Below, one piece after another: positions 50,886 to 64,000 of a stretch of 64,000 bases of DNA. The notes under the pieces are model-generated. The model did not search any database. It worked only from the letters and a program-made list of their open reading frames with translations, and was not told the origin of the DNA. A program made the position numbers and the translations under genes. Source of the DNA: a virus; IMG/VR virus record IMGVR_UViG_3300031994_000007. The stretch is one strand, 5' to 3'. Position 1 is the first letter of the stretch. Each line of letters starts with the position of its first letter.

Positions 50886-51215
50886 AAAATGACAAATTAA
50901 AAAAATAAATTCTTTAATACACTAAATCGTAAAAAAGCCAGTCAAATACTAAATTAACATTATTCTTTAACACATTAAAGTAATAAAAAACCAAGAGAGA
51001 TAATAGTAACAATGTATCATCAAATAATTGCGCAATAGGCGAGATAGATAAAGAAGCTTCACAAAGCAAGGCAGAGACATTCGTCAAGCCTATACGTTAG
51101 CATAACACAACAAGACTATGAATAAACAATAAGACAAAAGAGTAGATAAACAACAAACTAAATACGATAGTAATAGTAATACATTAATTATTATAATAAT
51201 TACAAAAGAAAAACA

Positions 51216-51244
51216 TTGACAAACAGCACCACTTGTGGTATAAT
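51216..51244 (+). promoter_or_regulatory. consensus promoter with the -10 region flanked by a 9-bp inverted repeat (GCACCACTT/AAGTGGTGC); drives a short non-coding leader
   Basis: TTGACA-17-TATAAT. No RBS or ORF before the next promoter. Downstream small hairpins and a T-run (51250-51300). Confidence 0.5.
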
Positions 51245-51318
51245 AGAAGTGGTGCCTTGCGATAAGGTAAGCGGCGACCTTTGTTAAAAAAATAACAATC
51301 TTTTTTATAAAAAAACTC

Positions 51319-51347
51319 TTGACATTTGCCCGGGCTTGTGATATTAT
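51319..51347 (+). promoter_or_regulatory. class A promoter (TTGACA-17-TATTAT, GCCCGGGC box in spacer)
   Basis: Sequence consensus. Confidence 0.6.
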
Positions 51348-51396
51348 AATACCAGAAAGAGAGAGATAAATAAATTAAAAGAAAGAGGTAAACAAA

Positions 51397-51624
51397 ATGA
51401 AAGAGATTAAGTACGCAATTCACAATAACAAGAATGAGGTTGTTGATTGGGCTAACACCGAAGCAGAAGCAGAAGCACTTGTCAAGAAAGCCGCTAAAAG
51501 AGGCTGGAAACGCACCATTCACAAAATCGAATGGACGATCAATGAAAACCCTGAAATCTGGGAACTCGAAGGTGGCAAGGAAGATCCCACCAAGGTGGAA
51601 TGGGGCAATAATGAAGAGTGGTAA
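51397..51624 (+). CDS. hypothetical early protein (75 aa)
   Basis: RBS AGAGG. TAA stop embedded in terminator hairpin GAAGAGTGG-TAAAAA-CCACTCTTC+T7. Confidence 0.65.
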   Translation: MKEIKYAIHNNKNEVVDWANTEAEAEALVKKAAKRGWKRTIHKIEWTINENPEIWELEGGKEDPTKVEWGNNEEW

Positions 51625-51655
51625 AAACCACTCTTCTTTTTTTATAAAAAAACTC

Positions 51656-51684
51656 TTGACAGATTGGCACATCCATGTTATAAT
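51656..51684 (+). promoter_or_regulatory. promoter TTGACA-17-TATAAT driving structured RNA copy 1
   Basis: Sequence consensus. Confidence 0.6.
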
Positions 51685-51690
51685 ACAATC

Positions 51691-51738
51691 ACAGGTTGAG
51701 GGAAACCACACGCGGGTAGTCGAGGGGAGAGACTAACT
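51691..51738 (+). ncRNA. repeated structured RNA element, copy 1
   Basis: ACAGGTTGAGGGAAACCACACGCGGGTAGTCGAGGGGAGAGACTAACT. Covarying helices across the 7 copies. Confidence 0.45.
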
Positions 51739-51781
51739 AAATAGTAACAAAAGAAAAACAAAAAGTTTCTAAAAATAGTTG

Positions 51782-51810
51782 TTGACAAATAACATCCTTT
51801 GTGCTATACT
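51782..51810 (+). promoter_or_regulatory. promoter TTGACA-17-TATACT
   Basis: Sequence consensus. Confidence 0.55.
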
Positions 51811-51846
51811 ATAATCACAAAGGGAAGAGAAAAGGAGATAACAAAG

Positions 51847-52155
51847 ATGATTAACATTAGAACTATCAACAAACTCACTGAGAATGATGGACTTACTCTT
51901 AAAAATGGTAAGCTTATCACTTACAAAAGCGGTTGGCAGGTTGCCACCGAGGGCGTAGAGTGCCACACCGCACGGGAAGCCATTAACGCGGTTAAGGCTT
52001 ACGGCGGTAACTGTGGGGTGTGGTTCGCTGGTGGTATCTACTACATCGACAAAAGCCACAGAGTCAATACCAAGCGCGAGGCGCTTGAAATTGGCAAAGC
52101 TCATAATCAAATCTCTGTTCTGGGCTGGCGTAAAATGGTTTTAGCGTACTGCTAA
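51847..52155 (+). CDS. hypothetical early protein (102 aa)
   Basis: RBS AAAGGAGATAACAAAG-ATG. 14-bp-stem terminator (AAAATGGTTTTAGC/GCTAAAACCATTTT) overlapping the stop. Confidence 0.65.
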   Translation: MINIRTINKLTENDGLTLKNGKLITYKSGWQVATEGVECHTAREAINAVKAYGGNCGVWFAGGIYYIDKSHRVNTKREALEIGKAHNQISVLGWRKMVLAYC

Positions 52156-52183
52156 AACCATTTTATTTTTTATAAAAAAATAC

Positions 52184-52212
52184 TTGACAAGTCAATCTAT
52201 CTATGCTATAAT
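52184..52212 (+). promoter_or_regulatory. promoter TTGACA-17-TATAAT driving structured RNA copy 2
   Basis: Sequence consensus. Confidence 0.6.
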
Positions 52213-52218
52213 ACAATC

Positions 52219-52268
52219 ACAGGTTGAGGGAAACCGCACTCGGGCAGGAGAGGGGAAGGACTGACTTA
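52219..52268 (+). ncRNA. repeated structured RNA element, copy 2
   Basis: ACAGGTTGAGGGAAACCGCACTCGGGCAGGAGAGGGGAAGGACTGACTT. Confidence 0.45.
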
Positions 52269-52318
52269 AAAGTAACAAAAGAATGACAAAAAATTTTTCT
52301 ATTTTTTTTGAAAAAATG

Positions 52319-52347
52319 CTTGACAAATCGCCCGGGCTTTGCTATAA
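52319..52347 (+). promoter_or_regulatory. class A promoter TTGACA-aatcGCCCGGGCtttgc-TATAAT
   Basis: Sequence consensus. Confidence 0.6.
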
Positions 52348-52380
52348 TACAATCAGAAAGAACAAGGGAGGACAAAAAAA

Positions 52381-52782
52381 ATGACTTACTACTTCGACAT
52401 GGATGGCGTTCTGGCTGACTTCCACTCTACTTACACTGAGCGCGCACAGGCTTTGAGCCGCGACTATCTTGCCAATCTCGCCCCGTTCGTTGAGAATGTC
52501 AAGACTGTCCGGAACCTCATTGCTCACGGTGAAAAGGTTTACATTCTCACCAAGGCCGCTAACGATGATGCCAAGGCTGGCAAAATTGACTGGCTGGCAA
52601 AGTACATCCCGGAAATTACGGCAGAACAGTTTATTTGCATCGTAGGCTCTGGTCGCAAGGTTGATTACATTCGTGAAGCTGGCATTCTTGTGGATGATGA
52701 TATTAAGAACATTCGGCAGTGGGTCAAAGGTGGCTTTGAGGGCTATCTGGTAGAGACTAAAGGTGCCACGGTTATTCTCTAA
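52381..52782 (+). CDS. HAD-superfamily 5'(3')-deoxyribonucleotidase-like protein (133 aa)
   Basis: N-terminal 'YYFDMDGVLADF' (DxDGV HAD motif I) and NT5C-like layout. RBS GGGAGGA. Paralog at 63036. Followed by hairpin terminator 52763-52800. Confidence 0.65.
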   Translation: MTYYFDMDGVLADFHSTYTERAQALSRDYLANLAPFVENVKTVRNLIAHGEKVYILTKAANDDAKAGKIDWLAKYIPEITAEQFICIVGSGRKVDYIREAGILVDDDIKNIRQWVKGGFEGYLVETKGATVIL

Positions 52783-52916
52783 CCGTGGCGCTTTCTATTT
52801 TGCCCGGGCAAAATCGCCAGCTCCGAAAGGCCCCGGACTTCACCACGCTAAAGTGGTGAAGTAAAAAACGCGAATGATTGTTAAACAAATAACAATAAAA
52901 AATGTCCCGAAACTAC

Positions 52917-52945
52917 TTGACAATAGGCACAATGTGTGGTAGAAT
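52917..52945 (+). promoter_or_regulatory. promoter TTGACA-17-TAGAAT
   Basis: Sequence consensus. Confidence 0.5.
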
Positions 52946-52977
52946 ACAGTCACCAAGAGGAAAAGAGGTAGACAGCA

Positions 52978-53382
52978 ATGACAATTAGATTCGCAACGAC
53001 TGCTGATGCTATCCGCATTATTAGGGCTATACAGAATAAACGCATGGACTACAATACGCCGCAAGATGTGCGGGAAGATGTGAACGCGGGGCGGCTGATT
53101 GTAGCAGAGGAAAACGGCAAGCTTTTAGGGTCTGTAGCTGTCGTGTATAAAGTCCATCGTGGTTATTATGCTATCATGAGAATGTGCGTGTATTCAAAAA
53201 CCAGCAAGGGCAAAGGGGTAGCAAGTGCGTTAATTGACTACGTGTTAGCTCTTGGCCTTGGCACTTATGGTGCAACGCCTTGGAATGACAATCCGGCCAT
53301 GATTCACATTTTTGTTAAAAGAGGTTTTGAGTACCAATACACATTCAAAAATAAATACGATTTTTATAAAAAAGGGGCTTGA
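52978..53382 (+). CDS. GNAT-family N-acetyltransferase-like protein (134 aa)
   Basis: 'LGSVAV...MRMCVYSKTSKGKGVASALIDYVL' resembles the acetyl-CoA-binding motif A. The TGA stop is the TTGACA -35 of the next promoter. Confidence 0.55.
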   Translation: MTIRFATTADAIRIIRAIQNKRMDYNTPQDVREDVNAGRLIVAEENGKLLGSVAVVYKVHRGYYAIMRMCVYSKTSKGKGVASALIDYVLALGLGTYGATPWNDNPAMIHIFVKRGFEYQYTFKNKYDFYKKGA

Positions 53383-53407
53383 CAAGTTCAAGCCCTTATG
53401 TTATAAT
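53379..53407 (+). promoter_or_regulatory. class B promoter (TTGACA embedded in GGGGCTTGA...TCAAGCCC hairpin)-17-TATAAT
   Basis: Sequence consensus. Confidence 0.6.
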
Positions 53408-53436
53408 ACAATCACAAAAGAAAAGGAGATAAAAAA

Positions 53437-53607
53437 ATGTTTAATGTTTACTACATCCGCAATGGGTATGAACTCAACGCTAAATTTGAAAAAAGAGGAA
53501 GTGCTCTTTTATTTGCTCATAATTTTGTATCTATGTTAGGCGGAGATTATGCCGCTGTTACTGATACAGAAACAAATAAAACTATACAAGTTTATAGCAG
53601 ATACTAA
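53437..53607 (+). CDS. hypothetical early protein (56 aa)
   Basis: RBS AAAGGAGATAAAAAA-ATG. Terminator AGGCTGA-TTCAGCCT+T6 at 53608-53640. Confidence 0.6.
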   Translation: MFNVYYIRNGYELNAKFEKRGSALLFAHNFVSMLGGDYAAVTDTETNKTIQVYSRY

Positions 53608-53659
53608 AAAAGGCTGATTCAGCCTTTTTTATTTACATTAAAAAAAATGAAAAAAGTGC

Positions 53660-53688
53660 TTGACAAATCGCCCGGGCAATGTTATAAT
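53660..53688 (+). promoter_or_regulatory. class A promoter driving structured RNA copy 3
   Basis: TTGACA-aatcGCCCGGGCaatgt-TATAAT. Confidence 0.6.
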
Positions 53689-53694
53689 ACAATC

Positions 53695-53745
53695 ACAGGC
53701 TGAGGGAAGCCCCACGCGGGGAGACGAGGGGAGAGACTGACTTAA
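53695..53745 (+). ncRNA. repeated structured RNA element, copy 3
   Basis: ACAGGCTGAGGGAAGCCCCACGCGGGGAGACGAGGGGAGAGACTGACTT (compensatory changes relative to copies 1/2). Confidence 0.45.
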
Positions 53746-53795
53746 AAGTAACAAATTGATGACAAAAAAATTTTTAAAAAAAATGAAAAAAGTGC

Positions 53796-53824
53796 TTGAC
53801 AATTTGCCCGGGCTGTGCTATACT
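53796..53824 (+). promoter_or_regulatory. class A promoter TTGACA-17-TATACT
   Basis: Sequence consensus. Confidence 0.55.
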
Positions 53825-53876
53825 ATAATCAGAAAGAGGGAAGGAAAACCCAAATAAACCGGAAAGGAAGAAAAAG

Positions 53877-53984
53877 ATGGAATTTTACAGTATGGAACAG
53901 TTCGAGATTCTGGGCGACCTGATGGAAGACTATCAGGAGTGGCTGGACTTTGAAGAGGACATGAAAACTAATCCTTGGGGCTGA
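53877..53984 (+). CDS. very acidic micro-protein (35 aa)
   Basis: MEFYSMEQFEILGDLMEDYQEWLDFEEDMKTNPWG. RBS GGAAAGGAAG. Stop within hairpin CCTTGGGGCTGAAAAAAGCCCCAAGG. Confidence 0.5.
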   Translation: MEFYSMEQFEILGDLMEDYQEWLDFEEDMKTNPWG

Positions 53985-54014
53985 AAAAAGCCCCAAGGAA
54001 ATTAAAAAAAGTAC

Positions 54015-54043
54015 TTGACAAGTAAGACAAAGTATGTTATAAT
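54015..54043 (+). promoter_or_regulatory. promoter TTGACA-17-TATAAT
   Basis: Sequence consensus. Confidence 0.6.
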
Positions 54044-54075
54044 ACAACCAGAAAGAAAGAAAAGGAGATAAAAAA

Positions 54076-54246
54076 ATGTACATCGTAACTGCTTACAAGA
54101 TTTGGGAAGAGTTTGAAGACTACAACAAAGCCGAACTGTACTTCGCCGCTTTGAAACATGGTGGGTACAAGTATGTGGAACTGAAAAAGAAAACCACGAC
54201 CGACAAATACGAATACTTTGAAAGTATCAAAATCTTTGTAAAATAA
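54076..54246 (+). CDS. hypothetical early protein (56 aa)
   Basis: RBS AAAGGAGATAAAAAA-ATG. TAA stop. Confidence 0.6.
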   Translation: MYIVTAYKIWEEFEDYNKAELYFAALKHGGYKYVELKKKTTTDKYEYFESIKIFVK

Positions 54247-54259
54247 TTAAAAAAGGGGC

Positions 54260-54289
54260 TTGACAAATCAAGCCCCTATGTGATATAAT
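54260..54289 (+). promoter_or_regulatory. class B hairpin promoter
   Basis: GGGGCTTGACAAATCAAGCCCC...TATAAT. Confidence 0.55.
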
Positions 54290-54321
54290 AAAGGCACAAA
54301 AGAAAAAAGGAGATTAAAAAA

Positions 54322-54471
54322 ATGACTATTCGTGAATTTTATAATTGGGCTGTCGCTAATGATGTTGAGGATTTTTGGTTTGGTGAAATGTTCCCCAATG
54401 GGATTGAAGTCTTTGAAATTGAAGATTTCACAATCAATACTGATAATAATTTTGTTTCTATCAACAATTAA
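54322..54471 (+). CDS. hypothetical early protein (49 aa)
   Basis: RBS AAGGAGATTAAAAAA-ATG. Confidence 0.55.
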   Translation: MTIREFYNWAVANDVEDFWFGEMFPNGIEVFEIEDFTINTDNNFVSINN

Positions 54472-54492
54472 AAAAATAATTAAAAAAGGGGC

Positions 54493-54521
54493 TTGACAAG
54501 ACAAGCCCCTTGTGTTATAAT
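54493..54521 (+). promoter_or_regulatory. class B hairpin promoter
   Basis: GGGGCTTGACAAGACAAGCCCC-TTGTGT-TATAAT. Confidence 0.6.
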
Positions 54522-54553
54522 GTAATCACAAAAGAGAAAAGGAGATAAAAAAA

Positions 54554-54709
54554 ATGAAAATGATTCAGAACATCGAATGCGGTAACATCTTCCCCTATAC
54601 CCTTGAGGGATTGATCGAAATGAGAGAAGAAGCCCGTGAACTTTACGATATTGAAGATCCCACTAATGCGGTGAGCATTTCCGAATACTATCAAATTATC
54701 ACGCTGTAA
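54554..54709 (+). CDS. hypothetical early protein (51 aa)
   Basis: RBS AAAGGAGATAAAAAAA-ATG. Strong terminator TCACGCTGTAAAAAGCGTGA+T9 (54695-54730). Confidence 0.6.
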   Translation: MKMIQNIECGNIFPYTLEGLIEMREEARELYDIEDPTNAVSISEYYQIITL

Positions 54710-54738
54710 AAAGCGTGATTTTTTTTTTGAAAAAGTGC

Positions 54739-54767
54739 TTGACAAATCGCCCGGGCAATGCTATAAT
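54739..54767 (+). promoter_or_regulatory. class A promoter driving structured RNA copy 4
   Basis: TTGACA-aatcGCCCGGGCaatgc-TATAAT. Confidence 0.6.
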
Positions 54768-54773
54768 ACAATC

Positions 54774-54824
54774 ACAGGTTGAAGGAAACCGCACCGGGGC
54801 AGAGGAGGGGAGAGACTGACTTAA
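54774..54824 (+). ncRNA. repeated structured RNA element, copy 4
   Basis: ACAGGTTGAAGGAAACCGCACCGGGGCAGAGGAGGGGAGAGACTGACTT. Confidence 0.45.
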
Positions 54825-54863
54825 TAGTTACAAAAGAAAAACAAAAAATTTCTAAAAAAAACT

Positions 54864-54892
54864 CTTGACATTTGCCCGGTCTTGTGATATTA
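54864..54892 (+). promoter_or_regulatory. class A-like promoter TTGACA-17-TATTAT
   Basis: Spacer tttGCCCGGtCttgtga (one mismatch to the box). Confidence 0.55.
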
Positions 54893-54945
54893 TAATACCA
54901 GAAAGAGGGAAGGAAAACCCAATAAACCAGAAGGGAAAAGAAAAG

Positions 54946-55377
54946 ATGAAAGAACTATACAGAGTGGAGCACATGACCAGAAGTGACTATGATGAATACA
55001 TGTGCGGGGGCTATAACTATAGGGTGCAGAAAATAAATGTGCTCGCGGAAAACCTGCAGGACGCCGCCCAAATCGTTAAAGAAATGTTCCCGTCTCATGT
55101 AATTAATGATGGTTATGTCAAAACTGTCGCTGAACTTGAGGCAGAACAAGCGGCAAAGGAAGCAGAATGGGAAGCCGAAAAAAGGAAAAAAGCAGAGCAG
55201 AAAGCCAAAAAAGAAGCTTTTGAAAAAGCCCATCCTGAGATTGTGGCAGAGCGCAAAAGAAAAGCAAAAATTACCAGAGCAAAAACAACAATTAAAGGAC
55301 TTGAAAAGCAGATTGCAGAAGCTGAAAAGAATCTTGCATACTGGAAAGCAAAACTTGAAGAACTTGAAAAGGGCTGA
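54946..55377 (+). CDS. hypothetical early protein with Lys/Glu-rich coiled-coil C-terminus (143 aa)
   Basis: RBS-proximal ATG in frame with track ORF 54865..55377. Terminator AAAAGGGCT-GAAAAA-AGCCCTTTT+T. Confidence 0.6.
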   Translation: MKELYRVEHMTRSDYDEYMCGGYNYRVQKINVLAENLQDAAQIVKEMFPSHVINDGYVKTVAELEAEQAAKEAEWEAEKRKKAEQKAKKEAFEKAHPEIVAERKRKAKITRAKTTIKGLEKQIAEAEKNLAYWKAKLEELEKG

Positions 55378-55407
55378 AAAAAGCCCTTTTCTTTTTTTAG
55401 AAAAGTG

Positions 55408-55436
55408 CTTGACAAATCCCCCAACCTATGATACAA
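55408..55436 (+). promoter_or_regulatory. promoter TTGACA-17-TACAAT driving structured RNA copy 5
   Basis: Sequence consensus. Confidence 0.55.
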
Positions 55437-55442
55437 TACAAT

Positions 55443-55492
55443 CACAGGCGGAGGGACGCCCCACGCGGGGAGCCGAGGGGGAAGACTGACTT
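55443..55492 (+). ncRNA. repeated structured RNA element, copy 5
   Basis: ACAGGCGGAGGGACGCCCCACGCGGGGAGCCGAGGGGGAAGACTGACTT. Confidence 0.45.
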
Positions 55493-55533
55493 TAGGTTAC
55501 AAAATGGTAACAAAAAATTTCTAAAAAAAGTAG

Positions 55534-55562
55534 TTGACAAATGCCCGGGCTTGTGATATTAT
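55534..55562 (+). promoter_or_regulatory. class A promoter TTGACA-aatGCCCGGGCttgtga-TATTAT
   Basis: Preceded by a GTTAC-N6-GTAAC inverted repeat (55506-55521). Confidence 0.6.
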
Positions 55563-55597
55563 AATACCAGAAAAAGAAAAGAAAGGAAGTAAATACA

Positions 55598-55771
55598 ATG
55601 TATAGAATCAAAATCGAAAGCGAACATGCCCCCAATACTTACAAATGGTATAATAACCCTCAGCAAGCGCATCTTGTAGCCTATACCATTATTAAGAATA
55701 AGGACGCAAATATTGTAACAGTGGAAAACCTTAAAGAAAAAAAGATTGAAAAAATTTATAAAAGGGCTTGA
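55598..55771 (+). CDS. hypothetical early protein (57 aa)
   Basis: RBS GAAAGGAAG. TGA stop formed by the -35 TTGACA of the next promoter. Confidence 0.55.
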   Translation: MYRIKIESEHAPNTYKWYNNPQQAHLVAYTIIKNKDANIVTVENLKEKKIEKIYKRA

Positions 55772-55796
55772 CAAATAGCCCGGCCTATGGTATAAT
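55768..55796 (+). promoter_or_regulatory. class B-like promoter (GGGCTTGACAAATAGCCC)-TATAAT
   Basis: Sequence consensus. Confidence 0.55.
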
Positions 55797-55830
55797 AAAG
55801 GCACAAAGAAAGAAAAGGAGATAAAAGAAA

Positions 55831-56014: not shown

Positions 56015-56048
56015 AAATACAGAAAGAAAGAAAAGGAGAATTAAAAAA

Positions 56049-58760: not shown

Positions 58761-58769
58761 AGCGGGGAC

Positions 58770-59067: not shown

Positions 59068-59096
59068 TTGACAAATAAATACTCTTGTGTTATACT
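59068..59096 (+). promoter_or_regulatory. promoter TTGACA-17-TATACT
   Basis: Sequence consensus. Confidence 0.55.
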
Positions 59097-59145
59097 ATAA
59101 TTGTTCCAAGAGAGAACAACAAAAACAAAAAAGGAGAATACAACA

Positions 59146-59328
59146 ATGTATAATGTGCGGTTTACTGACACCATCCATGGTGAGATGGAAGAGAACTTTG
59201 ATAGCTATGATGCGGCTATGGAGTATTGGAATAGCTATGCTGATACCGAGTCTTGTGTGGCTGGTGTCATGATGGATTTGGATAATTGCGAAATTATCTG
59301 GAATTTTGACGACAGGGAGGCAGAATAA
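59146..59328 (+). CDS. acidic hypothetical early protein (60 aa)
   Basis: RBS AAAAGGAGAATACAACA-ATG. In frame with track ORF 59101..59328. Confidence 0.55.
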   Translation: MYNVRFTDTIHGEMEENFDSYDAAMEYWNSYADTESCVAGVMMDLDNCEIIWNFDDREAE

Positions 59329-59589
59329 ATGAAAAAGATTCTTGCTTTTGTCCTTGTTTTTGTTCTTATCCTATCGTTGGGCATAAGCGCTTATGCTTAT
59401 AATAAATCTATCTTTGATTTGAAATACCATTTCAATTATGCTTATGTAGATTTGTTAAATGGTACGACAGTTGAGGGTAAAGTCCAGAGTTGGAAAGACT
59501 GGGAAGATTCAGACATGTTGCAAGTCACTTTTGAGGATGGAGCTACTTATTATTCCCATTCTTCTAACATTATGCTTGTTTCAAAATAA
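59329..59589 (+). CDS. secreted/membrane-anchored small protein (86 aa) with N-terminal signal/TM segment
   Basis: MKKILAFVLVFVLILSLGISAYA... Start immediately follows the upstream TAA. RBS GGGAGG. Confidence 0.6.
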   Translation: MKKILAFVLVFVLILSLGISAYAYNKSIFDLKYHFNYAYVDLLNGTTVEGKVQSWKDWEDSDMLQVTFEDGATYYSHSSNIMLVSK

Positions 59590-59603
59590 TAATAAAAAAG
59601 GGC

Positions 59604-59632
59604 TTGACAAACAAGCCCTTTTGTGCTATTAT
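59604..59632 (+). promoter_or_regulatory. class B hairpin promoter
   Basis: AAGGGCTTGACAAACAAGCCCTT...TATTAT. Confidence 0.6.
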
Positions 59633-59662
59633 AATACCAGAAAAGGAAAGGGAAATAAAAAA

Positions 59663-59842
59663 ATGACTACTTACAGAGAACGCCTGCTTGACCGCATGAT
59701 TGCCCTTTATGGGCTTGAAAATCCAATTGTTATCGAGTTTGCCAATATGTGCGAAAAATATGGGGATAATTCTTGGAATGATGATTTTCTGCGGCTCTTG
59801 GTAGAAGCCCATGAAGCAGACCCAGTTTTTAAGGAAGATTAA
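59663..59842 (+). CDS. hypothetical early protein (59 aa)
   Basis: RBS AAAGGGAAATAAAAAA-ATG. Terminator GGAAGATT-AAAA-ATCTTCC. Confidence 0.55.
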   Translation: MTTYRERLLDRMIALYGLENPIVIEFANMCEKYGDNSWNDDFLRLLVEAHEADPVFKED

Positions 59843-59888
59843 AAATCTTCCTTAATCGCCCGGGCAGAAAAGTGACAAAAGAAAGACA

Positions 59889-59917
59889 TTGACAAACTAT
59901 AAATAATGTGTTATAAT
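59889..59917 (+). promoter_or_regulatory. promoter TTGACA-17-TATAAT
   Basis: Preceded by aatcGCCCGGGCagaaaag. Confidence 0.6.
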
Positions 59918-59948
59918 AAAGGCACAAAAAGAAAAGGAGAATAAAACA

Positions 59949-60386
59949 ATGAATAAAGTTTTCAACAAAATAAAGACATGGGCTGAACCTGTGAGCGATT
60001 GGTGGTTTTTTAATTGGGAAGCTGTTGTAGTTATAATTTTTATAGCGGCTGTGCTTATTGGGCTTGTGGTACTCGCTTTATGGGCTTCTGGTGCTTTTTA
60101 TGATGAAGTCGAAAATTATGACTTCACAGCGCAGGTGTATGATAAAGACCACTATACCACTCAATCAGTAAGTTATATTACTTCTGGTAAAACTCGCATT
60201 CCTGTATACCATACTCATCATCACTACAAAGTAATGTGGGAAGATGGTGGAGAACGTGGTACATTTGAAATTGGTGAAGACCATTATGATTTAATTAAAA
60301 TCGGGGACTTTATCAATGTTCATTGCTCTGTGAGGGCAGACAAGCAGGGTGAACTTCATTATTATTATAGTTTCAAGGGATATTAA
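59949..60386 (+). CDS. membrane protein (145 aa) with one TM helix and His-rich segment
   Basis: TM 'AVVVIIFIAAVLIGLVVLALWA'. RBS AAAAGGAGAATAAAACA-ATG. Terminator CAAGGGAT-ATTAAA-ATCCCTTG. Confidence 0.65.
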   Translation: MNKVFNKIKTWAEPVSDWWFFNWEAVVVIIFIAAVLIGLVVLALWASGAFYDEVENYDFTAQVYDKDHYTTQSVSYITSGKTRIPVYHTHHHYKVMWEDGGERGTFEIGEDHYDLIKIGDFINVHCSVRADKQGELHYYYSFKGY

Positions 60387-60415
60387 AATCCCTTGAAATT
60401 TTTTTCAAAAAGTGC

Positions 60416-60444
60416 TTGACAAGTCCAAAAGAGTATGTTATAAT
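60416..60444 (+). promoter_or_regulatory. promoter TTGACA-17-TATAAT
   Basis: Sequence consensus. Confidence 0.6.
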
Positions 60445-60477
60445 GAAGGCACAAAGAAAGAAAAGGAGAATAAAAAA

Positions 60478-60939
60478 ATGAATAACGAAGTAATTAAGGC
60501 AATGAATAAACAGCCCCGTAAAAAAAGCAATTTTCAAAAGTGGTGGGAACAAAACGATTATAAAGTTTGGCGTGTCGTGCTGTTCCCCATTTGGATTTAT
60601 GTGTGGAGCAGAGAAAAAATTAAAACTTATCTTAATTCCCGTACAGTATGGAATGAAAACAGAGCGAATGAAATACTTAGTTATTACATTCCCCGCTGTG
60701 CTCGTTGGAATAATGAAAATAAAACCTTTTATTATTTTAATAATGGGTATGGATGGGAAATGGGCTTTGCTAAAAAGTATTTGAAAATTAAAGACCGTAG
60801 ATTTTGGAATCTTTATGCGTGTTGGCGTATTCGTGATTATCTTATCAAAAATTTTGAACTGGAAGGGTTCACCAAAGAAATTGGTAACTGCTACGATGGC
60901 TGGACTGAAATCACTTTCAGAATGAAAACAGAGGATTAA
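60478..60939 (+). CDS. Trp/aromatic-rich hypothetical early protein (153 aa)
   Basis: RBS AAAAGGAGAATAAAAAA-ATG. In frame with track ORF 60412..60939. Terminator ACAGAGGATT-A5-ATCCTCTGT+T7. Confidence 0.65.
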   Translation: MNNEVIKAMNKQPRKKSNFQKWWEQNDYKVWRVVLFPIWIYVWSREKIKTYLNSRTVWNENRANEILSYYIPRCARWNNENKTFYYFNNGYGWEMGFAKKYLKIKDRRFWNLYACWRIRDYLIKNFELEGFTKEIGNCYDGWTEITFRMKTED

Positions 60940-60968
60940 AAAATCCTCTGTTTTTTTCAAAAAAGGGC

Positions 60969-60997
60969 TTGACAAATCGCCCGGGCTATGTTATATT
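60969..60997 (+). promoter_or_regulatory. class A promoter driving structured RNA copy 7 (variant)
   Basis: TTGACA-aatcGCCCGGGCtatgt-TATATT. Confidence 0.55.
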
Positions 60998-61003
60998 ATA
61001 GTC

Positions 61004-61050
61004 ACAGGCGGAGGGACGCCACACTCGGGTAGTAGAGGGGGAGGCTTTTT
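61004..61050 (+). ncRNA. repeated structured RNA element, copy 7 (divergent 3' end with T-run)
   Basis: ACAGGCGGAGGGACGCCACACTCGGGTAGTAGAGGGGGAGGCTTTTTTT. Confidence 0.4.
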
Positions 61051-61119
61051 TTATTTGGAGAATGTGGGGGAGGTTGCCCGGGCGGCGGCAAAAGAAAAAC
61101 AAAAAATTACAAAAAAAGA

Positions 61120-61148
61120 CATTGACAAATAACCAGAAGTATGCTATT
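61120..61148 (+). promoter_or_regulatory. promoter TTGACA-17-TATTAT
   Basis: Preceded by gttGCCCGGGCggcggc. Confidence 0.55.
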
Positions 61149-61184
61149 ATAATACCAGAAAGAGAGATAAAGGAGGACAAAAAA

Positions 61185-61373
61185 ATGTATTTCGTTCTTG
61201 ATATTGTCAGTAATAAAACGGTCGCAATGACCGCTTTTAGAGACGCGGCGGAAATTATCGCCGCAAACTTCCCCGCAAAGTGCGTAGTTCGCTACGCCGC
61301 TGAAATAGTTAGCGGGTATTCTAAAGACAGCCTGTTCTTTGAGAATGAGCAGGAAATGAAAAAAGGGGCTTGA
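61185..61373 (+). CDS. hypothetical early protein (62 aa)
   Basis: RBS AAAGGAGGACAAAAAA-ATG. KKGA-TGA stop inside the next -35. Confidence 0.55.
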   Translation: MYFVLDIVSNKTVAMTAFRDAAEIIAANFPAKCVVRYAAEIVSGYSKDSLFFENEQEMKKGA

Positions 61374-61398
61374 CAAAATAGCCCCTTTATGATACAAT
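61370..61398 (+). promoter_or_regulatory. class B-like promoter TTGACA-17-TACAAT
   Basis: GGGGCTTGACAAAATAGCCCC. Confidence 0.55.
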
Positions 61399-61428
61399 AC
61401 CAATAGAAACAGAAAAGGAGAAATACAA

Positions 61429-61548
61429 ATGATGTATGACATTTATCCCTGCGATCTTGACCCATTCGGGGAGTGCCCGAAGCATTGTCAGGATTGCGCC
61501 CATTGCGTGGGCTGGTTCATGGATGAACCAGAGGACGAAGAAAATTAA
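61429..61548 (+). CDS. Cys-rich micro-protein (39 aa; putative zinc-binding)
   Basis: MMYDIYPCDLDPFGECPKHCQDCAHCVGWFMDEPEDEEN. RBS AAAAGGAGAAATACAA-ATG. Confidence 0.5.
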   Translation: MMYDIYPCDLDPFGECPKHCQDCAHCVGWFMDEPEDEEN

Positions 61549-61557
61549 AAAAGGGGC

Positions 61558-61586
61558 TTGACAAATACAACCCCCTGTGCTATAAT
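61558..61586 (+). promoter_or_regulatory. class B-like promoter TTGACA-17-TATAAT
   Basis: GGGGCTTGACAAATACAACCCCC. Confidence 0.55.
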
Positions 61587-61613
61587 AAAGACACAATAAA
61601 GGAGATGAAAACA

Positions 61614-61667
61614 ATGAAAGCACGACCGCCGCCCGCAAGGGCATGTGATTGGATTACTAATAATTAG
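61614..61667 (+). CDS. 17-aa micro-ORF (MKARPPPARACDWITNN) terminated by TAG
   Basis: RBS AAAGGAGATGAAAACA-ATG. The only TAG-terminated ORF in the early array. If TAG is read through it extends 9 codons to a TAA overlapping the next micro-ORF ATG (TAATG). Confidence 0.35.
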   Translation: MKARPPPARACDWITNN

Positions 61668-61687
61668 ATAGTAATGTATAGGAGAAT

Positions 61688-61827
61688 AAACTAATGAATA
61701 GAATTAGAGATGAGACGAAAACCTTTTAAGGTTTTCTAATAGATAGTATAGAATAGAAAGATAATAGAAAATGAGGAAAAACTAATGAATAGAATTAGAG
61801 ATGAGACTAAAACCTTTTAAGGTTTTT
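61688..61827 (+). repeat. tandem duplicated micro-ORF units (2 x ~48 bp, ~92 bp apart), each RBS + MNRIRDETKTF + stop-overlapping hairpin
   Basis: Units at 61688-61735 and 61780-61827 differ by 1 nt. ORFs at 61694..61729 and 61785..61820. Hairpin AAAACCTTTTAAGGTTTT. The surrounding 230 nt is unusually dense in TAG triplets. Confidence 0.5.
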
Positions 61828-61942
61828 GATGAATAGAATAGAATGATAGTAATAAAATAGAATAGAAGTAAGTGCCAAGGGGCGGCTCGGTTGGAGGATG
61901 GAAGTAGCCGAAAAAATTTTTCAAAAAATTTTGAAAAACCCC

Positions 61943-61971
61943 TTGACAAATGCCCGGGCATTTGTTATAAT
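61943..61971 (+). promoter_or_regulatory. class A promoter TTGACA-aatGCCCGGGCatttgt-TATAAT
   Basis: Sequence consensus. Confidence 0.6.
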
Positions 61972-62005
61972 ACAATCACAAAGAGAAAACAAGGAGAAAA
62001 AGAAA

Positions 62006-62119
62006 ATGATGACTAACGATTATTGGGAAGCTCACGAAGCCGAATGGCTTGCCGCTCAGGAGTGCATGGAGTGGCTCCTGTTTGAGGCCGACATGGCCAC
62101 TGACCCCTACCGGGATTAA
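62006..62119 (+). CDS. acidic micro-protein (37 aa)
   Basis: MMTNDYWEAHEAEWLAAQECMEWLLFEADMATDPYRD. RBS AAGGAGAAAAAGAAA-ATG. Hairpin CCCTACCGGG-attaaaa-CCCGGTAGGG overlaps the stop. Confidence 0.5.
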   Translation: MMTNDYWEAHEAEWLAAQECMEWLLFEADMATDPYRD

Positions 62120-62140
62120 AACCCGGTAGGGAGAAAATAC

Positions 62141-62169
62141 TTGACAAGTCCAAAAGTGTATGATATAAT
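62141..62169 (+). promoter_or_regulatory. promoter TTGACA-17-TATAAT
   Basis: Sequence consensus. Confidence 0.6.
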
Positions 62170-62198
62170 TAAGGCACAAAAACAAAGGAGATAAAAAA

Positions 62199-62516
62199 AT
62201 GAGAACTTGTAAAAACTGCGGTTGTTATCTTCCAGATAATTGGACTACTTGCCCCGCATGTTTTATGGATGAAAAGCAAGTTGAACATAAAACAGAAAAA
62301 CAGATTGATTCACACAAAGAGTCTTTTCTTAATAACATTTGCCGCGTTGATACATTCCATAAAAACAATACTAAAACATCAAATGTTTTTGCCTCTTATG
62401 AATACGCTATTAGATTTGCTCATTATATAGCTTGCGAATCTGACATAGCAATGGTTATTGTAACTGACATTCCCAGTGGGAAAATAATTGAAAAACTTTC
62501 TCGTAAAGGGTATTGA
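62199..62516 (+). CDS. zinc-ribbon protein (105 aa; C-x2-C-x10-C-x2-C N-terminus)
   Basis: MRTCKNCGCYLPDNWTTCPACF... RBS AAAGGAGATAAAAAA-ATG. TGA stop inside the next -35 (tatTGAcaa). Confidence 0.6.
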   Translation: MRTCKNCGCYLPDNWTTCPACFMDEKQVEHKTEKQIDSHKESFLNNICRVDTFHKNNTKTSNVFASYEYAIRFAHYIACESDIAMVIVTDIPSGKIIEKLSRKGY

Positions 62517-62541
62517 CAAATCCAAAAGCGTATGGTATAAT
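62513..62541 (+). promoter_or_regulatory. promoter TTGACA-17-TATAAT
   Basis: Sequence consensus. Confidence 0.6.
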
Positions 62542-62572
62542 TAAGGCACAAAAGGAAAAGGAGATAAGAAAA

Positions 62573-62713
62573 ATGTACGAATACGAAATTCGCTATCTGG
62601 CAACTGGTGAGACTGATTTTCTGTATGGATATTCTCGTCAGGACTTGGCAAGACGCTATCCCGAAATCCCAACCGATACTTATGTTATCATCTGCCGCGA
62701 GTACATCGACTGA
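62573..62713 (+). CDS. hypothetical early protein (46 aa)
   Basis: RBS AAAAGGAGATAAGAAAA-ATG. In frame with track ORF 62513..62713. Confidence 0.5.
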   Translation: MYEYEIRYLATGETDFLYGYSRQDLARRYPEIPTDTYVIICREYID

Positions 62714-62794
62714 TGGCTCGCGGTTTTCTATTCATTTTTTTAGAATGGTTATGCATTGTATAAGCATACATTATAAATGAATTTTATACGGGCT

Positions 62795-62835
62795 ATTTTC
62801 GGCGCGCCGCTCCTGGCCGACGCGGCGCGTTTTTC
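62795..62835 (+). terminator. GC-rich intrinsic terminator
   Basis: CGCGCCGC-tcctggccga-GCGGCGCG followed by TTTTT. Contains GGCGCGCC. Confidence 0.6.
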
Positions 62836-62974
62836 GCTGTAATAATTCTGCCACAATTTTGTCATCAATTTGTAACACATTCGCACAAACAGGCAAAGTC
62901 CCGAAATGAATAATTATACAATGAATAATGAATAAAAATTCAAAAAATTTTTTTGAAAAAATTAAAAAAAAGTG

Positions 62975-63003
62975 TTGACAAACGCCCGGGCATCTGCTAT
63001 AAT
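62975..63003 (+). promoter_or_regulatory. class A promoter TTGACA-aacGCCCGGGCatctgc-TATAAT
   Basis: Sequence consensus. Confidence 0.6.
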
Positions 63004-63035
63004 CATAGACAGAAAGGGACAAGGAGGATAAAAAA

Positions 63036-63443
63036 ATGACTAACTACTACTTCGACATGGACGGCGTTCTGGCTGACTTCCACGGTGCTTATACTGATAG
63101 GGCACAGGCTTTTCAGTATGATTTTATTGCTAACCTTGCCCCATTTACCGCAAATGTTGAACTTGCAAAGTCCCTCATAGCACAGGGCAATCGGGTTTAT
63201 ATCTCCACCATTGCCGCAAGTGAAGAAGCAAAGCAGGCGAAAATTGATTGGCTTGCTAAGTATCTTCCGGAAATCCCCAGCTATCGTATCATTATCATTG
63301 TTGGGCATGGTAACAAGGCCGAACACATGAGAACAAAGACCGGAATCCTCATTGACGACAAGCGCGCCAACTGCCGCCAATGGGAAAAGGCCGGACAGCG
63401 TGCGGTGTGGCTGGAAATCAAGGGGGGAGCAATCTCCCTTTGA
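63036..63443 (+). CDS. HAD-superfamily 5'(3')-deoxyribonucleotidase-like protein, paralog 2 (135 aa)
   Basis: Shares 'YYFDMDGVLADFH..Y..RAQA...ANLAPF...AKIDWLAKY(I/L)PEI' with 52381..52782 (~50% identity). RBS AAGGAGGATAAAAAA-ATG. Confidence 0.65.
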   Translation: MTNYYFDMDGVLADFHGAYTDRAQAFQYDFIANLAPFTANVELAKSLIAQGNRVYISTIAASEEAKQAKIDWLAKYLPEIPSYRIIIIVGHGNKAEHMRTKTGILIDDKRANCRQWEKAGQRAVWLEIKGGAISL

Positions 63444-63477
63444 TTCTAAAAAAAATTGTTTTGTAACTATTTTGTAG

Positions 63478-63506
63478 TTGATTTTGCCCGGGCTATTTGT
63501 TATAAT
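63478..63506 (+). promoter_or_regulatory. class A-like promoter TTGATT-ttGCCCGGGCtatttgt-TATAAT
   Basis: Sequence consensus. Confidence 0.5.
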
Positions 63507-63537
63507 TAAGCCAGAAAGAAACAAGGAGGACAAAAAA

Positions 63538-63972
63538 ATGTACGCTATCACTTATTCCAACATCATTCACTGCAAGAAATCCGGCGACACCGCACAGCAG
63601 ACCGCAAACTTCTACCACACCGGACGGACGGAAAGACACGACGATCGCCCCTGGTATGAGGGAAGTGATATTGAAGAAATCGCCGCAAGCGTCAAGTCTA
63701 ATGGTTTTAGTCTTGCTGATGGCCGCACCAATCACGGCGACACGCTGGAAGAAAAATGGAACGATTTTCGTACCCGCACCGCTTCCAATCTCTTTATTTA
63801 TGTAACCAATAATTTTACCGGTTATTACATGAATATTGATGAGTTTGAAGAGTTTGTGAAAATGTGGTGCTATGTTAGCACAGAATCCGCAAAAAACGGC
63901 GGGCGGTCTAAAATTAGATGTAAGCACGAAAGCCAAAAAATGCGGAATTGGTTAGCTCACAGGGCGGGATAA
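63538..63972 (+). CDS. hypothetical early protein (144 aa)
   Basis: RBS AAGGAGGACAAAAAA-ATG. In frame with track ORF 63478..63972. Hairpin GCGGGATAAAAACCCGC after the stop. Confidence 0.6.
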   Translation: MYAITYSNIIHCKKSGDTAQQTANFYHTGRTERHDDRPWYEGSDIEEIAASVKSNGFSLADGRTNHGDTLEEKWNDFRTRTASNLFIYVTNNFTGYYMNIDEFEEFVKMWCYVSTESAKNGGRSKIRCKHESQKMRNWLAHRAG

Positions 63973-64000
63973 AAACCCGCCCAAAACGAAAAAAAGTTCT

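Follow-up and report, generated by a model that had tools for sequence, protein, structure and literature searches.

What is the run of very small genes at the right-hand end of the viral record IMGVR_UViG_3300031994_000007 (IMG/VR)? The stretch analysed here, hereafter the window, is 64,000 nucleotides long, and from 51216 to its end (51216..64000) its + strand carries an array of micro-genes led by strong promoters. An original prediction, made from the letters alone, had likened this array to the host-takeover module of phage SPO1 or the pre-early region of T5, and had also raised the possibility of a synthetic cassette array. Judging from sequence features and from analogy with known phages, we consider it highly probable that the array serves as the immediate-early region, of the host-takeover type, in a large uncultured siphovirus with TAG-recoded late genes; sequence comparison places this phage among the relatives of phAss-1 and of Enterococcus phages H1 and EF1. 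What is new is an extreme form of the known phage early-gene arrays built of composite promoter/terminator cassettes, set in a TAG-recoded phage.

Scoring against the sigma-70 consensus TTGACA-17-TATAAT over positions 50000-64000 found 24 sites matching at 12/12 positions and 15 at 11/12, all of them + strand sites within 51216-62975. Recounted over 51200-64000, sites of at least 11/12 number 39 on the + strand and 0 on the - strand, against a chance expectation of 0.23 on average and 2 at most (first-order Markov simulations of the region). Two extra promoters (10/12 with TG), at 58770 and 63478, each precede an open reading frame (ORF) and bring the total to 41 units, so that the promoter array spans 51216-63506 in the window. 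The count of about 42 near-perfect promoters in the original prediction is thus confirmed, and the array lies far beyond chance; the left 50.5-kb block has 3 promoters of at least 11/12 on each strand. The spacer measures 17 bp in 38 of the 39 sites and 18 bp in the remaining one, and an extended -10 TG is present at every one of them. When aligned, the promoters share an AT-rich tract upstream of the -35 box, with a T-run followed by A6 that resembles an UP element, a -35 box extended to CTTGACAA and a -10 box of the Gram-positive type, TRTGnTATAAT (alignment consensus tttttNAAAAAAgNgCTTGACAA...TRTGnTATAAT). Their density is about 3.2 per kb, all in the same orientation, over at least 22 kb when the continuation beyond the window is included. 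The GC content of 51200-64000 is 38.8% (1-kb windows, 35%-45%), short of the 45-50% that had been estimated, and that of the left block is 28.7%.

Among the 41 promoters, 33 lead ORF units, 7 lead units with a 45-nt RNA and 1 leads a unit with another non-coding transcript. The 35 ORFs (17-153 amino acids) comprise these 33 and two second cistrons that lack a promoter of their own. Eight promoters lead no ORF (the 7 pseudoknot-RNA units described below and unit 1). An upper size limit of 170 amino acids had been given because the TTG of a -35 box was counted as a start codon; the actual maximum is 153. A Shine-Dalgarno (SD)-like tetramer lies within 20 nt of the ATG in all 35 ORFs and AAGGAG in 27 of them, in agreement with the predicted consensus ribosome-binding site (RBS); the ATG follows the -10 box by 27-52 nt, and the typical leader of about 30 nt carries AAAGGAGA. 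Comparison by tblastn with the related contigs that were fetched gave homologues for 34 of the 35 ORFs, the 49-aa ORF 54322-54471 having none in any fetched locus. Of the 32 ORFs that align without gaps, 30 have most of their differences at codon position 3: counts at positions 1/2/3 are 332/266/1152 in the 102-aa ORF, 88/66/235 in a 35-aa ORF and 226/156/447 in a 38-aa ORF, and the 107-aa ORF 58437-58760 shows 82 synonymous versus 22 non-synonymous codon differences. The 17-aa ORF 61614-61667, with zero synonymous changes and the sole TAG stop, is a doubtful gene. This pattern of substitution indicates that the micro-ORFs are real genes under purifying selection. Their products had been described as often very acidic, Cys-rich or membrane-anchored: about 13 of the 35 have an isoelectric point (pI) below 5, all of them under 70 aa; four are Cys-rich (three tiny proteins with 5 Cys each and one 105-aa protein with 7); and membrane anchoring comes down to one signal-peptide-like N-terminus (86 aa) and one transmembrane helix (145 aa).

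Terminator-like sites number 27 in the array, compared with 12.2 +/- 3.3 in shuffled sequences. Per-gene folding of the 3' ends revealed two layouts. In one, an intrinsic terminator has the last codons as its 5' arm and the stop codon in its loop; in the other, found in about 11 units, the loop of a hairpin GGGGCTTGACAAnnCAAGCCCC encloses the -35 box of the next promoter, with the T-rich spacer and -10 box supplying the tail. Five TGA stops are the TGA of the following TTGACA, the proteins ending in ...KKGA, ...KGA, ...KRA or ...KGY. Given the terminators and the per-gene promoters, the layout is one of monocistronic promoter-RBS-ORF-terminator units with two bicistronic exceptions, and spacers, leaders and terminators vary from unit to unit. 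Some 40 natural, compact promoter-RBS-terminator parts are thereby on offer.

The array adjoins a block that reads very differently. Under the standard code 15% of positions 1-50500 is open; reading through TAG raises this to 96%, and reading through TGA brings no gain. Standard-code reading of 1-51200 yields no more than nine ORFs of 150 aa or longer; with TAG read through, the - strand carries 26 genes, among them ORFs of 3110, 2709 and 1605 aa. The late genes contain 322 in-frame TAG codons versus 336 CAA and 31 CAG and have a G+C content at third codon positions (GC3) of 0.15, versus 0.43 in the early genes. The 34 supported early ORFs have 0 TAG in 2668 codons and end in 22 TAA, 12 TGA and 0 TAG stops; they favour CAG, CTG and CTT, and the late genes CAA and TTA. 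All this indicates that the left block is the structural/late module of a TAG-recoded siphovirus (code 15, TAG to Gln). PHROG families recognised there are the large terminase (TerL), portal and a capsid-type (major capsid protein, MCP) family. TerL is 44-48% identical to those of Enterococcus phages H1, EF1 and VRE9_4, Geobacillus E3 and phAss-1, and the 3110-aa ORF matches the phAss-1 tape-measure protein in size. Giant ORFs, low GC and TAG recoding had made us suspect a crAss-like phage; this was rejected because TerL, portal and MCP match the H1/EF1, E3, SPbeta-like and phAss-1 groups and because promoters and SD sequences are of the Gram-positive type. The original prediction, which had recognised the promoter array itself, made no mention of the recoding of the left block, of the ORF-less promoters and structured RNA, of the terminators or of the shuffling of cassettes.

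In the model of Borges et al., recoded phages keep their early genes readable in the standard code of the host (bioRxiv 10.1101/2021.08.26.457843), and phAss-1 is a TAG-recoded gut phage (PMC10607447). The window resembles this model (10.1101/2021.08.26.457843; PMC10607447) in that its late genes are full of TAG and a TAG-free set would be readable by the host on entry. It differs from the model in its sharp GC3 split and in having as early set a promoter array that also drives tRNAs for late codons, and it differs from phAss-1 in that the 41-kb stretch of the latter examined here holds no such array and a single consensus promoter on each strand. It is a very clean natural case of a recoded phage with its genome in two dialects, one readable by a naive host (standard code, mid-GC codons, TAG-free, host promoters of maximal strength) and the other, that of the late block, AT-rich at third codon positions with TAG as a sense codon. 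No tRNA gene was found in the window, and no suppressor tRNA(CUA) in the window or in its 9.4-kb extension on contig L126 (whole genome, about 240 kb). That extension does carry tRNA-Leu(UAA) (L126 14908-14994) and tRNA-Lys(UUU) (L126 16016-16090) under promoters of the same type. In the late genes TTA makes up 73% of Leu codons and AAA 87% of Lys codons, so that the early programme would supply tRNAs for the late codon dialect, as these tRNA genes suggest. With late-codon tRNAs under early promoters, the switch of code and codons as a timing device becomes a testable idea as soon as there is a host. The 312-aa protein encoded at 48702-49640 on the - strand (PHROG 'sigma factor', E 1.7e-44), with a Cys-rich, zinc-ribbon-like C-terminal tail, is likely to drive late transcription that does not depend on sigma-A.

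Pattern scans retrieved arrays of the same kind from 2 IMG/VR contigs and 106 metagenome loci, with 1274 consensus promoters in 588 kb. The metagenome versions are diverged, at 70-96% identity with whole-gene replacements; the closest, locus L106, is 91-96% identical. A high-identity DNA search of the array against 50,697 phage records returned no match. A protein identical to the product of the 102-aa ORF is encoded on a 239,565-bp contig, and the window thus belongs to a contig of about 240 kb; on the near-identical ENA contig L126 the array runs on for at least 9.4 kb past the window (L126 10181-19624 = 64000-73443) with 21 more + strand promoters. Synteny with locus L003 comes in blocks of 82-89% identity that end at 51364, 51634, 53439, 53637, 54325, 54473, 54914, 55733, 56444 and further positions, inside promoter/RBS units or at start codons. 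Between the conserved flanks an ORF is replaced, absent or extra, as where an unrelated ORF takes the place of 51397-51624, and the promoter cassettes cross-match dozens of positions. From these breakpoints we infer that whole micro-genes are swapped between related phages at the cassettes, in a manner like that of the promoter early stem-loops (PeSLs) of T4-type phages.

PeSLs consist of a sigma-70 promoter with an upstream AT tract and a G-run/C-run stem-loop between or overlapping its boxes, followed by SD and start codon; placed before orphan genes, they bring about the exchange of modules (PMC2839356 section 13; PMC4122927). Every one of these elements is matched here, with orphan genes behind the cassettes and replacement breakpoints at them. 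The array differs in lineage and host phylum, in its Gram-positive-type TRTG with strong SD, and in its greater density; furthermore, its stem-loop often doubles as the terminator of the gene before it and encloses the -35 box in its loop, and the cassette also takes in stop codons. The phage here being a siphovirus-type relative of H1 and phAss-1, the likeness is an analogy of design and not membership of a family. PeSL-like modular shuffling would then not be limited to T4-type coliphages, but would also operate in a Firmicutes-type siphovirus lineage that recurs across metagenomes.

One recurrent part of the cassettes bears on their origin. CCCGGG occurs 20 times in the array, always within GCCCGGGC (octamer expectation, 0.04). 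GCCCGGGC lies in 13 promoter spacers (about one third) and elsewhere about 25 bp upstream of some -35 boxes, and at promoter 61943 it forms the centre of a perfect 20-bp palindrome. Relatives have it at the same promoter position, kept or as a near-variant (GCCCGGAC, GCCTGGGC, CCGGGC). Most likely it serves the cassettes as a stem-loop or an operator: by likeness to PeSLs it may be their G/C stem-loop, and an operator for a dimeric protein would fit its conservation and the weakness of its hairpin on its own at least as well. A putative tie to the restriction-endonuclease-fold protein encoded at 63538, whose promoter bears GCCCGGGC, is only an idea. A single AscI site, GGCGCGCC, is present, in the stem of a terminator.

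The nearest cultured relative examined, Enterococcus phage H1 (OP534061, 91.5-99.8 kb), has a syntenic small-gene block on the + strand. Its position relative to TerL is the same, on the opposite strand: genes of the TerL side are followed by a 1-kb gap and then by the block, which has 18 promoters of at least 11/12 in 7.6 kb and about 20 small genes, with a HAD hydrolase after it. The terminator/promoter overlap aaaaGGGG-TTGACAA-CCCC-TTTTT is shared as well. Unlike the array, the H1 block lacks GCCCGGGC and the pseudoknot RNA. Since H1 shares the design, this design would be ancestral to the lineage; H1 itself appears to use the standard code, because its late genes are annotated as long intact ORFs. 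As a side observation, all genes of its block (L130 7491-15018; 91.5-99.0 kb) are annotated as hypothetical, and at least one small ORF, after the promoter at L130 10234, is unannotated.

These relatives decide between a natural and an artificial origin. The near-textbook regularity of the parts and the CCCGGG (SmaI/XmaI) and AscI sites had suggested that expression cassettes were engineered or synthesised as an array, or that a product of cloning had become joined to phage DNA. Both kinds of site are indeed there, but not as cloning scars: GCCCGGGC is a conserved promoter part, kept or slightly varied in relatives, and GGCGCGCC lies in a conserved terminator stem. Moreover, a synthetic array is at odds with spacers, leaders and terminators that vary per unit, with synonymous drift and gene replacement in over 100 independent contigs from metagenomes and 2 from IMG/VR, with a cultured phage of the same design and with the lack of any high-identity match in the phage DNA collection; diverged natural homologues, a junction present in four assemblies and the H1 design refute it, and we hold it to be extremely improbable. 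A misjoin of a mid-GC foreign fragment to a 28%-GC phage contig would account for the jump in GC from 28.7% to 38.8% and for the sharp change of codon usage at about 51 kb. However, the late/early junction is spanned by four independent contigs, namely L063, L100 (from a 241-kb contig of 241,302 bp), L002 and L062, H1 has the same gene order, and a 12/12 promoter of the same type already stands in the low-GC part at 49804. Given the four crossings, we rule a chimera out as very improbable.

The units of the array are as follows, with promoters scored against the 12 consensus positions, copies of the pseudoknot RNA scored in bits by a covariance model, and 'overlap' denoting a terminator/-35 overlap.

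51216..51304 (+): unit 1; 12/12 promoter with -10 in the loop of inverted repeat 51226-51234 / 51247-51255; non-coding transcript of about 60 nt ending at TTGTTAAAAAAATAACAA and a T-run; kept in L003
51319..51624 (+): 11/12 promoter (GCCCGGGC in spacer), RBS, ORF 51397-51624 (75 aa), stop codon in terminator loop; in L003 an unrelated ORF between the same flanks
51656..51735 (+): 12/12 promoter, pseudoknot RNA copy 1 (51691-51735), 66.2 bits
51782..52155 (+): 11/12 promoter, RBS, ORF 51847-52155 (102 aa), family of 5781 unnamed metagenome proteins; AlphaFold2 (AF2) model, pLDDT 80.6, no confident fold match
52184..52263 (+): 12/12 promoter, pseudoknot RNA copy 2 (52219-52263), 71.8 bits
52320..52782 (+): 12/12 promoter (GCCCGGGC), RBS, ORF 52381-52782 (133 aa), NT5C / 5'(3')-deoxyribonucleotidase family (Pfam, PHROGs)
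52917..53382 (+): 11/12 promoter, RBS, ORF 52978-53382 (134 aa), GNAT acetyltransferase (Pfam, PHROGs); TGA stop within next TTGACA
53379..53607 (+): 12/12 promoter (-35 in loop of GGGCTTGACAAGTTCAAGCCC hairpin), ORF 53437-53607 (56 aa)
53660..53739 (+): 12/12 promoter (GCCCGGGC), pseudoknot RNA copy 3 (53695-53739), 69.2 bits
53796..53984 (+): 11/12 promoter (GCCCGGGC), hairpin AGGGAAGGAAAACCC (53838) in the 5' untranslated region (5' UTR), ORF 53877-53984 (35 aa, pI 4.1)
54015..54246 (+): 12/12 promoter, ORF 54076-54246 (56 aa)
54260..54471 (+): 12/12 promoter (18-bp spacer; overlap), ORF 54322-54471 (49 aa)
54493..54709 (+): 12/12 promoter (overlap), ORF 54554-54709 (51 aa)
54739..54818 (+): 12/12 promoter (GCCCGGGC), pseudoknot RNA copy 4 (54774-54818), 66.7 bits
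54865..55377 (+): 11/12 promoter, 5'-UTR hairpin (54907), ORF 54946-55377 (143 aa; coiled-coil-like C-terminal half, sub-threshold)
55409..55488 (+): 11/12 promoter, pseudoknot RNA copy 5 (55444-55488), 65.4 bits
55534..55771 (+): 11/12 promoter (GCCCGGGC), ORF 55598-55771 (57 aa); TGA stop within next -35
55768..55989 (+): 12/12 promoter, ORF 55831-55989 (52 aa); TGA stop within next -35
55986..56333 (+): 12/12 promoter, ORF 56049-56333 (94 aa)
56380..56617 (+): 12/12 promoter, ORF 56441-56617 (58 aa, pI 4.1)
56663..56895 (+): 11/12 promoter, ORF 56722-56895 (57 aa)
56914..57224 (+): 12/12 promoter, bicistronic pair: ORF 56975-57100 (41 aa, 5 Cys) and ORF 57087-57224 (45 aa, own RBS, no own promoter)
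57293..57562 (+): 11/12 promoter (GCCCGGGC), ORF 57353-57562 (69 aa)
57571..57852 (+): 12/12 promoter, ORF 57634-57852 (72 aa)
57915..57994 (+): 11/12 promoter (GCCCGGGC), pseudoknot RNA copy 6 (57950-57994), 72 bits
58050..58336 (+): 12/12 promoter (GCCCGGGC), ORF 58115-58336 (73 aa)
58375..58760 (+): 12/12 promoter, ORF 58437-58760 (107 aa)
58770..58951 (+): 10/12 promoter with TG, ORF 58835-58951 (38 aa, 5 Cys)
59068..59589 (+): 11/12 promoter, bicistronic pair: ORF 59146-59328 (60 aa, pI 4.1) and ORF 59329-59589 (86 aa, signal-peptide-like N-terminus)
59604..59842 (+): 11/12 promoter (overlap), ORF 59663-59842 (59 aa)
59889..60386 (+): 12/12 promoter, ORF 59949-60386 (145 aa, one transmembrane helix; sub-threshold DUF2500 match)
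60416..60939 (+): 12/12 promoter, ORF 60478-60939 (153 aa)
60969..61100 (+): 11/12 promoter (GCCCGGGC), pseudoknot RNA copy 7 (61004-61048), 62.2 bits; subtype with U7 run and second GGGGGAGG box with GUUGCC...GGC hairpin
61122..61373 (+): 11/12 promoter, ORF 61185-61373 (62 aa); TGA stop within next -35
61370..61548 (+): 11/12 promoter, ORF 61429-61548 (39 aa, 5 Cys, pI 4.1)
61558..61940 (+): 12/12 promoter, doubtful 17-aa ORF 61614-61667, then AT-rich stretch with two 11-aa mini-ORFs
61943..62119 (+): 12/12 promoter (perfect 20-bp palindrome ACAAATGCCCGGGCATTTGT in spacer), ORF 62006-62119 (37 aa)
62141..62516 (+): 12/12 promoter, ORF 62199-62516 (105 aa, 7 Cys; sub-threshold zinc-ribbon match); TGA stop within next -35
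62513..62713 (+): 12/12 promoter, ORF 62573-62713 (46 aa)
62800..62840 (+): GC-rich terminator hairpin GCGCCGC...GCGGCGC with T5, holding the sole GGCGCGCC site; kept in L126
62975..63443 (+): 12/12 promoter (GCCCGGGC), ORF 63036-63443 (135 aa), second NT5C-family nucleotidase
63478..63972 (+): 10/12 promoter with TG (GCCCGGGC), ORF 63538-63972 (144 aa); AF2 pLDDT 88.5, PD-(D/E)xK restriction-endonuclease-like fold

Pfam and PHROGs recognise three ORFs only, the NT5C genes at 52381 and 63036 (PF06941, matching PHROG '5'-3' deoxyribonucleotidase') and the GNAT gene at 52978; for 31 of the 34 supported ORFs neither database gave a convincing family (3 of these outside the PHROG scan), the DUF2500, zinc-ribbon and coiled-coil matches being all below threshold. 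Sequence searches of the PDB with three ORFs found nothing. AF2 models were made of two proteins, both non-acidic (102 and 144 aa): the former has no confident match, and the 63538-63972 protein is predicted, by a moderate match, to adopt a PD-(D/E)xK-like fold, nuclease-like rather than that of a mimic. The more than 30 conserved orphan early micro-proteins are candidates for host-takeover or anti-defence factors.

The SPO1 host-takeover module has 12 operons. Its 26 genes are grouped in operons (PMC6873191); they are small early genes with unusually strong sigma-A promoters and strong RBS, mostly of unknown or host-shut-off function, in about 12 kb (PMC6873191, including Stewart et al. 1998 cited there). 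The array is likewise a cluster of small genes with strong sigma-A-type promoters and strong RBS in a block of about 12 kb. Unlike the SPO1 module, it packs 41 promoters, 35 ORFs and 8 RNA units, nearly all monocistronic, into 12.8 kb, it shows no protein homology to SPO1 (gp37-gp60, PHROG scan of 30 ORFs), and it belongs to a TAG-recoded siphovirus and not to a herellevirus. The T5 pre-early region carries the deoxyribonucleotidase dmp (bioRxiv 10.1101/866236). A deoxyribonucleotidase (dmp there, as candidates the two NT5C-family genes here), small host-shut-off proteins and a suspected nuclease function would be common to these two first-expressed blocks. A1/A2 were not recognised here by family scans, and the T5 region has far fewer promoters. 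The predicted likeness to both systems is supported as one of small, mostly orphan genes, strong host-type promoters and RBS, position on the opposite strand beside the structural module and the two NT5C genes; homology to SPO1 forms no part of it.

On this reading, unmodified host sigma-A RNA polymerase and standard-code translation would express the array at very high level on entry, as many short monocistronic transcripts. The products would take over the host, with nucleotide dephosphorylation by NT5C, acetylation by GNAT and the small nuclease-fold protein as candidate activities; many would be orphan micro-proteins, and some of these may act against the defences of the host. A further stretch of the array would make tRNAs fitting the late-gene codons and so prepare the switch to the late, recoded, AT-rich programme, probably run by the sigma-like factor 48702-49640. 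The conserved promoter/terminator/RBS cassettes would double as points of homologous recombination, and whole micro-genes would therefore be exchanged between related phages.

Several points weigh against an immediate-early takeover region. There is no PHROG homology to early proteins of SPO1, T5 or T4 (30 ORFs scanned; NT5C and GNAT only), and with 31 of 34 proteins lacking a family and a single moderate fold, host takeover is argued from position and analogy. The H1 block is not GC-enriched (28.9% versus 31%), so the GC contrast of the array needs a separate explanation. As no suppressor tRNA(CUA) was found where it was sought, the link from the array to the code switch is incomplete. Eight strong promoters yield no protein, which a simple gene array does not explain. 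Finally, a Firmicutes host is deduced only from the type of promoter and RBS and from the relatives, and timing, promoter use and termination efficiency are all read from sequence consensus.

Two other functional readings share part of this evidence. Anti-defence genes are known to cluster in the early regions of phages. If the array were mainly an anti-defence island of DNA mimics, anti-CRISPR proteins or other immunity inhibitors, its turnover would be the mark of an arms race; the small acidic proteins, the high turnover, the common orphan status and the early expression signals all agree with this. Yet no ArdA, Ocr, Acr or other known anti-defence family was matched in Pfam or PHROGs, the recognisable genes are metabolic or nuclease-like, and the DNA-mimic proteins are putative; as the main role we find anti-defence doubtful, while noting that it overlaps the takeover explanation rather than excluding it. 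The eight promoters without protein, together with the density and co-orientation of the promoters over at least 22 kb, fit the idea that they act mainly at the DNA level, by loading polymerase that pulls the genome in (T7-like) or by sequestering host RNA polymerase, the ORFs being secondary passengers. Full-consensus promoters with UP and TG elements do bind polymerase very tightly. However, the ORFs appear to be under purifying selection, and a terminator after nearly every gene speaks against long pulling transcripts, so that a DNA-level role as the principal one is quite improbable.

Seven of the ORF-less promoters (51656, 52184, 53660, 54739, 55409, 57915 and 60969) are followed by a conserved 45-nt element with the consensus ACAGGyuGAGGGAarCCnCACnnGGGnAGnnGAGGGGArGGACUG. 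Metagenome phage contigs hold more than 150 distinct copies of it. In a set of 150 distinct copies, 149 are preceded by a promoter of at least 10/12; in 146 of those copies the -10 box ends exactly 9 nt before the first stem, which would place the RNA 5' end 2-3 nt before it, and the -35 box of the next promoter follows at a median of 98 nt. Mutual information picked four covarying pairs, and the structure was evaluated on a gap-free alignment of 96 distinct sequences. The helices are P1 (4-7 with 14-17), P2 (18-19 with 26-27) and P3 (21-22 with 31-32); because P2 and P3 cross, they would form an H-type pseudoknot. The proposed structure is 97.9% paired, with a covariation score of 0.519 compared with 0.157 in shuffles (0 of 500 reach 0.519) and at most 0.092 with the partners slid; pair 18-27 occurs as GC (40), CG (36) and AU (16), and pair 22-31 as CG (46), UA (37) and GC (12). 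The covariance model finds exactly the seven copies in the window (62-72 bits; next best 8.7 bits); in L002 it detects a single copy, and phAss-1 and H1 give none (H1 best 7.6 bits). Rfam gave no match at gathering thresholds over the whole window, and chance matches only at a relaxed E<=10 on the block or an isolated copy. Covariation of this strength identifies an undescribed structured RNA family, predicted to consist of a hairpin (loop GAGGGA) stacked on a minimal H-type pseudoknot and followed by an SD-like GAGGGGARGGA tract.

Possible roles of this RNA are put forward with different degrees of confidence. In Bacillus, 5' stabilisers combine a 5'-terminal structure with an SD-like tract. 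A 5' stabiliser or leader of a read-through mRNA, which would share these features, is a possible reading that we advance tentatively. Between the element and the next promoter there is no canonical terminator, a U7 run being present in the copy-7 subtype only. It is rather unlikely to be a trans-acting decoy or sponge, made in bulk early, for a factor recognising GGA or SD-like motifs; targets could be CsrA, a RegB-like or defence endoribonuclease, or 30S subunits. If it were, a hairpin with a GGA loop in 5' UTRs of the array would be the cis target. This hairpin (AGGGAAGGAAAACCC, loop AAGGAAAA) lies at 53838-53851 and 54907-54920 (+), compensatory changes alter its stem (CAGG...CCUG, GAGG...CCUC), and with ACCAGAAAGGAAG after it as SD there are two GGA sites about 20 nt apart; loci L002-L109 contain 128 copies of it. 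A nucleation site for a phage translational repressor, like that of T4 gene 32, is unlikely, and other roles, antitermination included, take the remaining probability.

A search of 185,579 species genomes for a bacterial counterpart gave 16 pattern matches, 14 of them outside Firmicutes and set aside as chance; the two Firmicutes matches, on inspection, lacked the promoter and element context. That only chance matches were found speaks against an element closely mimicking some host RNA. For a type III antitoxin (ToxI/CptI-like) or a CRISPR-repeat mimic no host counterpart was matched, and these were set aside, near-sequence mimics being the only ones ruled out. Also rejected were an encoded peptide, since the start would be TTG, CTG or CGG, the copies do not share a reading frame and their changes are compensatory, and HDV-like 'theta', pistol and twister ribozymes and riboswitch pseudoknots, whose topology is unfit and which have no Rfam support.

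Other features lie around and within the array. On its left, a 12/12 promoter in the low-GC part (49804-50126, +) precedes a gene for an 84-aa protein of AbrB/MazE/SpoVT fold (PF04014, E 1e-7; ORF 49872-50126), a candidate regulator; a second AbrB/MazE-like gene lies at L126 18255-18536. The + strand ORF that follows the first (about 50123-50460) has an in-frame TAG at 50359, and recoded genes therefore also occur on the + strand, right before the TAG-free array. In the L126 extension several promoter-driven stretches are without ORFs. One of about 500 nt (L126 11283-11775; also L003, - strand, about 590-330), with a GC content of 51-54%, is kept in relatives; Rfam gave no match to it, and shuffles fold with an energy just as good (z 0.13). 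Within the array, an AT-rich island carries tandem 11-codon mini-ORFs, MNRIRDETKTF, at 61704-61739 and 61785-61820 (+), each with its own SD and a hairpin AAAACCTTTTAAGGTTTT that covers the stop codon. In unit 1 (51216-51304) the -10 box sits inside the loop of a 9-bp inverted repeat and the non-coding transcript terminates at the TTGTTAAAAAAATAACAA palindrome; similar ATTGTTAA...TAACAAT palindromes are found near 52868 and frequently in L002. The non-coding divergent junction 50690-50900 is rich in GTTACA/TGTAAC palindromes, such as GTTACAAAAATGTAAC. Between the RNA elements and the promoters that follow them, the same units, of the form GTTAC-N6-GTAAC or (G/A)TNACAAAA, come back about every 11 bp; they may be phased A-tracts or protein sites.

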